Source of the DNA: Bradymonadia bacterium
GTDB lineage: Bacteria; Myxococcota_A; Bradymonadia; UBA7976; UBA1532
DNA: 43,550 bases
Assembly: GCA_046290225.1 (NCBI GenBank)
Contig: JBKAGE010000014.1
Span: 1-43,550 of the forward strand
Direction: 5' to 3'
Made by a program: the position numbers and the translations under genes
Part shown: piece after piece, positions 28,106-28,813 of the stretch
Layout of the letters: every line of letters begins with the position of its first letter
Numbering within the stretch: position 1 is the stretch's first letter
The notes under the pieces: model-generated
Databases searched by the model: none
What the model saw: only the letters and a program-made list of their open reading frames with translations
Told to the model about the DNA's origin: nothing

Positions 28106-28384
28106 TCAGCCCTTCCCCAATAATGGCAGCGCCATTCGCCCTGCGTCTGTTGCAAACGCCGTGGCCTGATGTTTGAGGTCAGGCTCTCTCCACACGCACG
28201 TGCGGCCTGTTCTGGGCACATGAGCCATCAGCTCGGCTTCGGAGGGCACGCCGTACACTACGACGATGCCTTGCTGGGGGCCATGCCGGGCGGCCCAGGC
28301 ATCCATGGCGTGAATCGCCTGAGCCATCCGTCGACCCTCTGGCAGATCGGTGCGCACGACAAAGTACAGACGCTCAGGTGCCAT
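28106..28384 (-). CDS. Peptidyl-tRNA hydrolase type 2 (Pth2/PTRHD1)-like protein
   Basis: LYFVVRTDLPEGRRMAQAIHA matches the Pth2 N-terminal motif (xVVRxDL...G...AQxxHA); C-terminal WREPDL...TAFA. Confidence 0.75.
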   Translation of the reverse strand: MAPERLYFVVRTDLPEGRRMAQAIHAMDAWAARHGPQQGIVVVYGVPSEAELMAHVPRTGRTCVWREPDLKHQATAFATDAGRMALPLLGKG

Positions 28385-28813
28385 CTACGCGACTCGCTTT
28401 GTCCGAGCATCGGCGCGGGCCTGTCTCAGTCCGTCGTGGAGTTGAGGACCTCGCCCTTCGGCGACGGCTGCACGCCAGGCGTCGACCTCTGCCTTGGCGC
28501 GTTCGAGCGTGGATACGCGCTCTATTTCGGCGCCCTCGTAGAACAGCTCTACGAGTGCCACCACCCTCGATGTGCGGAGAAAGCCGAGCTCGTCCCATCG
28601 TGTATGTGGAGATTCTGACAGGGCCGGGTGGCGGCCACGAAGAATGTGGTAGGCGAGCAGATGCGCTCGGGTCTGCCGCCCCAGCTCTCGGGCTTCCGCC
28701 TTGAGCTGATGACGTGCTTGATGACTGGTCTCGCTGGCCTGATGACGCAGGGCGCGACCCTGGGTGGCCAGCTCTTCGATCTTGTGCTTGAGGTTCGACA
28801 GGTACGGCTTCAT
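28385..28813 (-). CDS. Helical hypothetical protein with HLLAYxxLRG motif; TAG stop abuts the next ATG in frame
   Basis: Strong SD (ACAGGAG) 6 nt before ATG; basic coiled-coil N-terminus. Confidence 0.8.
   Translation of the reverse strand: MKPYLSNLKHKIEELATQGRALRHQASETSHQARHQLKAEARELGRQTRAHLLAYHILRGRHPALSESPHTRWDELGFLRTSRVVALVELFYEGAEIERVSTLERAKAEVDAWRAAVAEGRGPQLHDGLRQARADARTKRVA

Follow-up and report, generated by a model that had tools for sequence, protein, structure and literature searches.

On the minus strand of a 43,550-nt stretch of DNA from a Bradymonadia bacterium (the whole stretch is hereafter called the window), two small genes meet without a spacer. The TAG of the upstream gene, ORF1 (28387–28385), directly abuts the ATG of ORF2 (28384) in the same frame, and a sense reading of this TAG would give a 235-aa product (142 + 1 + 92 residues) spanning both genes. 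This arrangement raises the question of whether readthrough of the junction stop decides if the Pth2-like ORF2 protein is tethered to ORF1, as the original prediction proposed. Comparison with homologous loci indicates that the conserved control point lies elsewhere: it is a stop codon in a leader upstream of ORF1, beyond 28106–28813, rather than the ORF1/ORF2 junction. Judged from sequence comparison, the locus is probably a jumbo-phage-type translational control cassette, namely a Pth2-like operon gated by a suppressor tRNA and captured in a bacterial chromosome.

Results

The two proteins

ORF1 (28385–28813, minus strand) encodes a 142-aa protein of an unnamed phage family, which is predicted to be all-helical (pLDDT 94). 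It matched no Pfam or PHROG entry, and fold searches returned only generic helical matches (best Z 7.8; best E in BFVD 0.07; no usable match in the Atlas).

ORF2 (28106–28384, minus strand, ending in TGA) encodes a 92-aa protein of phrog_1866 with a predicted Pth2 fold (AF2 pLDDT 95.6), and is 65–74% identical to its best homologs. The model matched MJ0051 in Foldseek (E 1.8e-4) and aligned with six Pth2 structures (3erj, 1q7s, 2zv3, 1wn2, 1xty, and 1rlk) with VIA Z scores of 11.1–11.6 and rmsd of 2.0–2.5 over 86–90 residues; a family profile (A4) matched 2zv3 (MJ0051) with E 1.9e-10. The window ORF2 alone gave no Pfam PTH2 match, its relatives exceed the Pfam PTH2 cut-off, and a PDB search with the single sequence P0197 returned nothing relevant. 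The family shares the R.DL, Q..HA, and TA motifs with Pth2, and H25 and D69 are invariant in it. The Lys of the Pth2 GK motif and the Asp and Thr of DAGxT have catalytic roles in Pth2. In the ORF2 family, the former position is variable (Arg in the window), and DAGxT aligns to EPDL, and no Thr is conserved at +4. Because both motifs are replaced, the hydrolase activity of ORF2 is only putative. Thus, the predicted Pth2-like identity of ORF2 held at the level of fold: by its modeled structure and family profile, ORF2 is a member of the Pth2 superfamily, and peptidyl-tRNA hydrolysis is a putative function. A prediction of the ORF1–ORF2 complex scored 0.00, which is uninformative either way.

The ORF1/ORF2 junction

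The TAG-ATG junction is not an assembly error, since an independent public run yielded a contig (X1; 197 nt, low depth, 28253–28449) that crosses it with no mismatched letters. The absence of a convincing Shine–Dalgarno sequence (SD) before ORF2, which had also been predicted, was confirmed: scored against a generic bacterial anti-SD, the host 16S tail not having been found in the assembly, the ORF2 SD reaches −4.6 kcal/mol and is the second weakest among 24 loci. Direct abutment of a stop and an ATG is uncommon but ordinary in the host, where it occurs at 7 of 496 long TAG-ended ORFs and 19 of 3311 TGA-ended ORFs.

A conserved in-frame stop between the two genes was not found family-wide. Among 24 distinct adjacent pairs of ORF1 and the Pth2-like gene, the genes overlap in the −1 arrangement in ten and the −4 arrangement in nine, are spaced by +2 in two, and form an in-frame TAG-ATG in three (the window, L040, and L004), so that 21 of 24 are out of frame; at five further loci, the two genes are not adjacent. 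The SDs before ORF2 at L040 and L004 are strong (−11.0 and −12.1 kcal/mol, respectively), and hence ORF2 should be able to initiate independently there. Family-wide, these sequences point to ordinary translational coupling at the junction. The variable, out-of-frame spacing that had been named as counting against a tethering switch was thus largely what we observed, yet natural fusions exist. P0092 and P0094 are ORF1–ORF2 fusions with 41–42% identity to the read-through product of the window in a profile search, P0233 is a full-length relative of P0092 (63%), and P0224 is a fusion with 24% identity. The ORF1 tree places the fusions P0094 and P0092 one after the other outside the clade of the window, L040, and P0086 (support 100/98 and 98/93), meaning that the frame is retained in all four clade members with a known junction. 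Consequently, an ORF1–ORF2 fusion is plausible and probably functional in this clade, the only one in which the frame is kept. This part of the proposed tethering stands; the part that makes the junction the deciding gate does not fit the 21 out-of-frame pairs and the position of the conserved gate in the leader.

A leader with an in-frame stop upstream of ORF1

A putative sigma70-type promoter (28931–28961, minus strand; TTGACA at 28961–28956 and TACCGT at 28936–28931, with a deduced start site) lies 7 nt ahead of the leader ATG. This distance implies a leaderless mRNA, and most homologous loci have the same arrangement. The promoter spacer is 19 nt in the window versus mostly 16–17 nt in the relatives, and a scan limited to 16–18-nt spacers called no promoter in the window.

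The leader ORF (28810–28923, minus strand) consists of ATG at 28923 in a run of eight codons, TAG at 28899–28897, four codons, an RGPP sequence at 28884–28873, and a TGA that overlaps the ORF1 ATG, giving the pattern M-x7-TAG-x4-RGPP. Of 27 testable loci, 26 have a leader stop followed by RGPP, L008 having no leader. The stop lies 2–7 codons ahead of RGPP and is TAG in 20 loci, TAA in six, and TGA in none. Over the 26 loci, the Arg is written with six different codons and the Gly with four; such synonymous variation points to selection on RGPP at the peptide level. The full pattern was found upstream of none of 7614 host ORFs.

ViennaRNA predicts a hairpin (28814–28883, minus strand) that pairs the ORF1 SD (AGGAG, 28824–28820) with the Gly-Pro-Pro codons. 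The expected number of pairs is 6.9 in the window versus 1.1 in shuffled sequences; over the 26 loci, the predicted mean is 6.3 versus 0.7, with at least four pairs in 23. When SD regions were exchanged between loci, 5.1 pairs were still predicted compared with 6.3 for the real combinations, which were higher in 20 of 26. Since swapped SDs pair nearly as well, the Gly-Pro-Pro codons appear to act as a generic anti-SD, and part of the conservation may be at the RNA level. The predicted probability of an unpaired SD is 0.20 with a ribosome at the leader stop and 0.64 with a ribosome at RGPP, a difference that is partly built in because the stalled state blocks more RNA. With a commonly assumed ribosome footprint, the minimum spacing between the stop and RGPP would place the anti-SD just past the terminating ribosome.

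The sequence around the leader stop is biased: G follows it in 22 of 26 loci and ACG precedes it in 12 of 26, whereas the true TAG stops of a related phage genome (G061) are followed by G in 26 of 67 cases and preceded by ACG in none. The leader start also has 14 nt of complementarity to the D-arm of the tRNA described below, which may be due to chance.

The putative suppressor tRNA and its covariation with the leader stop

A class I tRNA with the amber anticodon CUA (27995–28067, minus strand; ARAGORN; Rfam RF00005, 65.1 bits) begins 38 nt beyond the ORF2 stop. It forms a cloverleaf with a 7-nt CUA loop, aligns to positions 1–71 of the 71 in the Rfam model, and has G1-C72, C2-G71, A73, canonical D- and T-loops, and an incompletely encoded CCA. 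None of the other tRNAs among the 96 called in the 8.58-Mb genome has this anticodon. A perfect 12-bp hairpin between ORF2 and the tRNA (28070–28098) could be a processing site or the terminator of a convergent host gene; a terminator scan left it uncalled. ARAGORN labels the tRNA as Pyl. We rejected this reading, because no PylS match exceeded the TIGR02367 cut-off in the 99% complete genome.

A CUA tRNA would be expected to be charged with Lys or Gln via U35. Among 33 stop-anticodon tRNAs compared, A73 is present in 24 and both G1-C72 and C2-G71 in 26, and position 3:70 is variable. A comparison of 37 suppressor tRNAs did not find a conserved synthetase identity, and the nearest isotypes by similarity were scattered. 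GenBank calls the CUA tRNA of phage Catera (L068, 6611–6684) Arg and that of phage Arash (L076, 3804–3878) Phe.

Of 44 loci scanned, many of them short, 22 carry a stop-anticodon tRNA. In phage G061, the stop-anticodon tRNA lies 5.1 kb from ORF2, away from the tRNA clusters of that phage. The leader stop agrees with the local anticodon in all 24 loci that have both (18 TAG/CUA and six TAA/UUA, with no cross combination; Fisher p 7e-6, a value that ignores kinship and is inflated by it). The TAA loci occupy three separate places in the ORF1 tree. At six leader loci, no suppressor tRNA was found in the DNA examined around them. Before these counts, we excluded duplicates (L016, L041, L042, and L043), loci with a cut ORF2 (L031, L032, and L037), loci whose leader would lie past the contig end (L017, L020, and L029), and one locus where no ORF1 was found (L021).

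A DNA-only pattern scan, blind to proteins and tRNAs, gave at least 119 stretches. The DNA was examined for 80 of them, of which 57 were classed and 23 were dropped for lack of a re-match under a stricter parser. Among the matches listed, a stop-anticodon tRNA was present in four of the 57 classed loci, and all four have the leader and ORF1. A scan of GTDB contigs gave one weak 16-residue match and nothing else, and this match was set aside. Some loci carry double or triple gates (L097, L098, and L101); the L101 leader bears two TAGs.

A second design in cultured phages

More distant relatives carry the stop within the Pth2-like gene itself. At 15 of 20 such loci, TAG is found at codon 2–4 of this gene, including those of the cultured phages Catera, Myrna, ME3, GAP32, RsoM2USA, Arash, and XacN1. 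A CUA tRNA was confirmed in all seven of these phages and in the uncultured LR756501 and LR756511; LR756504 was outside the genome-wide check. In RaK2, the gene has no in-frame stop, and the nine matches obtained include no stop-anticodon tRNA. The leader design is present at L070, no gate was seen at L044, L045, and L047, and L097 and L098 combine both designs. Additional TAGs lie inside or ahead of the Pth2-like domain at L097, L098, and L078, of which L098 and L078 bear a further internal TAG.

In total, 17 Pth2-like genes appear to require the insertion of an amino acid at codon 2–4, and two of them also at an internal position that is mostly Glu in homologs. In Catera and Myrna, the GTG after the TAG is or may be the annotated start. 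In XacN1, an SD-led ATG-AAG-TAG lies in frame five codons upstream of the annotated start of ORF364, which makes this gene a candidate target of the XacN1 CUA tRNAs. GenBank has no annotation for the Pth2-like gene in RsoM2USA or in several phages of Erwinia and Serratia, and gives a shortened version of it for GAP32 and Arash (L073 and L075 are among these loci); the stop-gated design would explain such missing or truncated annotations.

Several features of these loci were observed in addition. An HD-like domain takes the place of ORF1 as the partner of the Pth2-like protein in XacN1 ORF364 (L071, 958–1797) and P0187, where it is fused and its HD-type motif was recognized by eye; in ME3 (L072, 2815–3378), it is a neighboring gene with a below-cut-off match to Pfam HD (E 0.016). 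At L003 (3373–3631), L007 (2244–2645), L022 (2346–2426), and L024 (about 1660–1750), tRNA-like RNAs carry a long or UUCG-capped hairpin in place of the anticodon loop. They are arrayed just before or after the Pth2-like gene and are possible decoys or substrates. At L022 and L024, a Pth2-like gene without its own start codon lies downstream of the tRNA-like element. DUF7873 genes are found near the cassette at L022, L024, L028, and L046.

Genomic setting of the cassette

The gene flanking the cassette is present in 28 of 28 genomes of the family, which establishes the contig as bacterial. Of the 113 genomes of the class, one carries ORF2, and the GC3 of ORF1 and ORF2 is 0.67–0.68 versus 0.76–0.92 in the neighbors. 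These two features mark the roughly 1-kb cassette as an acquired islet. Among the relatives that could be placed, the closest sits on a phage record of 402 kb, and others sit on phage records of 169 and 315 kb. The sequence evidence thus identifies it as a phage-type islet captured in a bacterial chromosome.

Both the host (G000) and phage G061 use the standard code, and TAG is a genuine stop in them: the score for in-frame coding after TAG is −0.32 and −0.20, respectively, similar to those after TGA and TAA. On these scores, we rejected a genetic code 15 reading for both genomes.

Directly upstream of the cassette (29010–29241) is a 232-nt palindromic element resembling MITE or REP sequences, with about 90 blastn hits in the genome, often as inverted pairs about 500 nt apart. 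Elsewhere, the window encodes a 2129-aa Rhs/teneurin-like YD-repeat protein (18637–25026, minus strand) and a low-GC pair of an AAA_21 ATPase and a weak HNH protein (2166–4228, minus strand) that resembles a defense-type module. Four contigs of the genome (C20, C37, C42, and C79) each carry an array of 7–10 divergent accessory tRNAs with duplicated isotypes, which are possibly also of mobile origin.

Discussion

A proposed suppressor-tRNA-gated operon

The stop-anticodon tRNA accompanies a two-gene operon, and the Pth2-like gene sits behind a stop that this tRNA reads. We propose that in the OFF state the ribosome would terminate at the leader UAG, leaving the hairpin to mask the ORF1 SD. In the ON state, the CUA tRNA would outcompete RF1, and the ribosome would continue for four codons to RGPP and stall there on the anti-SD strand, thereby freeing the ORF1 SD; ORF2 would then be translated through coupling to ORF1. 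In the lineage of the window, the junction UAG would be read through under the same conditions, and the output would partly consist of the 235-aa fusion, which relatives encode as a single gene. Since production of ORF1 would require UAG readthrough, some fusion is expected as a co-product, not as a separately controlled switch.

The stalling step draws on known arrest peptides. RGPP is described as the strongest or most robust arrest core among those tested, and RAPP-like motifs by themselves are insufficient and require an N-terminal context, according to PMC12992588. The predicted nascent chains of the leaders are short, at about 10–24 residues.

What the products do is the least supported step. 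They may clean up after failed termination, by peptidyl-tRNA recycling or by unloading the suppressor tRNA, a suggestion to which we give slightly less than an even chance. Such clean-up would close a negative-feedback loop on termination failure, analogous to prfB autoregulation. A more specific version sees the cassette as a self-induced, release-factor-independent, tRNA-based termination and rescue unit of large phages, here captured by a bacterium. When host release factors were knocked out or ran short, the stop-anticodon tRNA would enter stop codons, the leader or N-terminal stop would be read through, and ORF1 and the Pth2-like protein, separate or fused, would release the chain from the stop-anticodon tRNA or unload the tRNA. 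On the present sequence comparisons, we regard this version as quite unlikely.

Other readings of the locus

That the junction UAG is a selected second gate in the lineage of the window, with an active fused protein whose tethered share is set by readthrough, would fit the fused nearest outgroups, the frame kept in four of four clade members with a known junction, the weak ORF2 SD, and the extra TAG gates on the Pth2-like gene at L097, L098, and L078. We nevertheless consider it unlikely, given the 21 out-of-frame pairs among 24 and the strong ORF2 SD of the closest relative, L040. Moreover, the linkers of the window and L040 are about 10–15 residues longer than those of true fusions, and L040 ends in an EAA tail typical of split forms. 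The usual −1 and −4 overlaps are also impossible between TAG and ATG, and abutment may simply be the tightest coupling available to a gene ending in TAG. Far less probable still, to the point of being nearly negligible, is an origin of the cassette from stop-codon-recoded phages (TAG as Gln) or a pyrrolysine system, in which the TAGs would be plain sense codons. CUA tRNAs are typical of recoded phages in the available part of PMC13037316, and the ARAGORN label would agree with Pyl, but in both G061 and G000 the stretches behind TAG have non-coding scores, no PylS rises above the cut-off, TAA/UUA versions exist, and genes at these loci end in TAG, the last by a rough test on short loci.

We find it very unlikely that the tRNA is an uncharged decoy or terminator-like element and that the leader responds to ribosomes paused at the stop, or to near-cognate readthrough, when release factors are short. 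The 17 Pth2-like genes that appear to need an insertion at codon 2–4, two of them also internally, argue against it, as does an RGPP placed beyond the stop, which acts as a peptide only if translated. On its side are the variable acceptor stems, from which no isotype stands out, and the tRNA-like RNAs without a normal anticodon loop beside some cassettes. A silent or decaying phage relic is a somewhat unlikely reading that concerns the host copy only; the design would be real in phages, and it is compatible with the preferred explanation. The cassette is a single-copy islet with low GC3 beside a repeated palindromic element, it occurs in 1 of 113 class genomes, and host genes show no sign of extending past TAG. 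The 19-nt promoter spacer, together with the CCA that is not encoded, also means that the host copy may be silent. However, the leader, hairpin, both ORFs, and tRNA are all intact, and ORF2 keeps 65–74% identity to its best homologs. In addition, in a related contig from another run that spans the leader, the listed differences spare the TAG and include a change at the third position of a Pro codon.

The preferred reading, a suppressor-tRNA-gated operon of phage type, draws on the repeated placement of the phage Pth2-like gene behind a matching stop through two independent designs; the stop and the anticodon change together, and both are missing in RaK2. If correct, it would identify a specific regulatory target for the suppressor tRNAs of jumbo phages that use the standard code and would represent a natural "stop AND arrest peptide" switch.

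Comparison with known systems

Arrest-peptide attenuation, early-stop autoregulation, phage PTH2, and phage suppressor tRNAs (PMC5852040, PMC6102473, and PMC13037316) are already known. The present comparison adds the chromosomal capture, the covariation of TAA with UUA, the natural fusions, and the gate inside the gene of cultured phages, for which RaK2 serves as a negative control. A stop-gated leader was not found described in the literature searched, which included few subscription papers and no supplementary data such as the RGPP-uORF source data of PMC12992588 or the XacN1 tRNA table, either of which may affect how new the design is.

The cassette shares with the RAPP/RGPP arrest peptides (ApdA, ApdP, ApcA, SecM, and CruR) an RGPP core in an upstream ORF, located on a predicted hairpin that masks the next SD. 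In those systems, stalling turns the gene on, and the same probably applies to the cassette, where arrest is putative. The leader differs in being very short, in having no localization signal, and in carrying its in-frame RGPP behind a stop, so that the core is reachable by readthrough only and the input would be readthrough instead of pulling force or metal. The main text of PMC12992588 mentions neither phage, stop codon, nor readthrough.

As for ORF2, it has the fold and the R.DL, Q..HA, and TA motifs of the Pth2/Bit1 hydrolases; it differs from them in its shorter length, the replacement of GK and DAGxT, the stop-gated expression, and the link to a tRNA. A jumbo-phage PTH2 has been proposed to act in ribosome rescue (PMC7824862), and the accessible text of that source mentions no suppressor or stop codon.

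The CUA tRNA is a common element of the cassette, code-15 phages, and tRNA-Pyl systems. The cassette departs from the latter two in that TAG stays a genome-wide stop, PylS is missing, and the D- and T-loops are canonical. Amber or ochre suppressor tRNAs are frequent in jumbo phages with the standard code. XacN1 has the same CUA tRNAs and carries this Pth2-like gene; the XacN1 study was unable to identify a target for these tRNAs (PMC5852040).

Expression of the cassette would depend on termination failure at an early in-frame stop, as in prfB. The RF2 gene prfB regulates itself through an internal UGA that is bypassed by a +1 frameshift; the cassette would instead use a dedicated cognate tRNA, and its products are a Pth2-like protein and a helical partner rather than a release factor.
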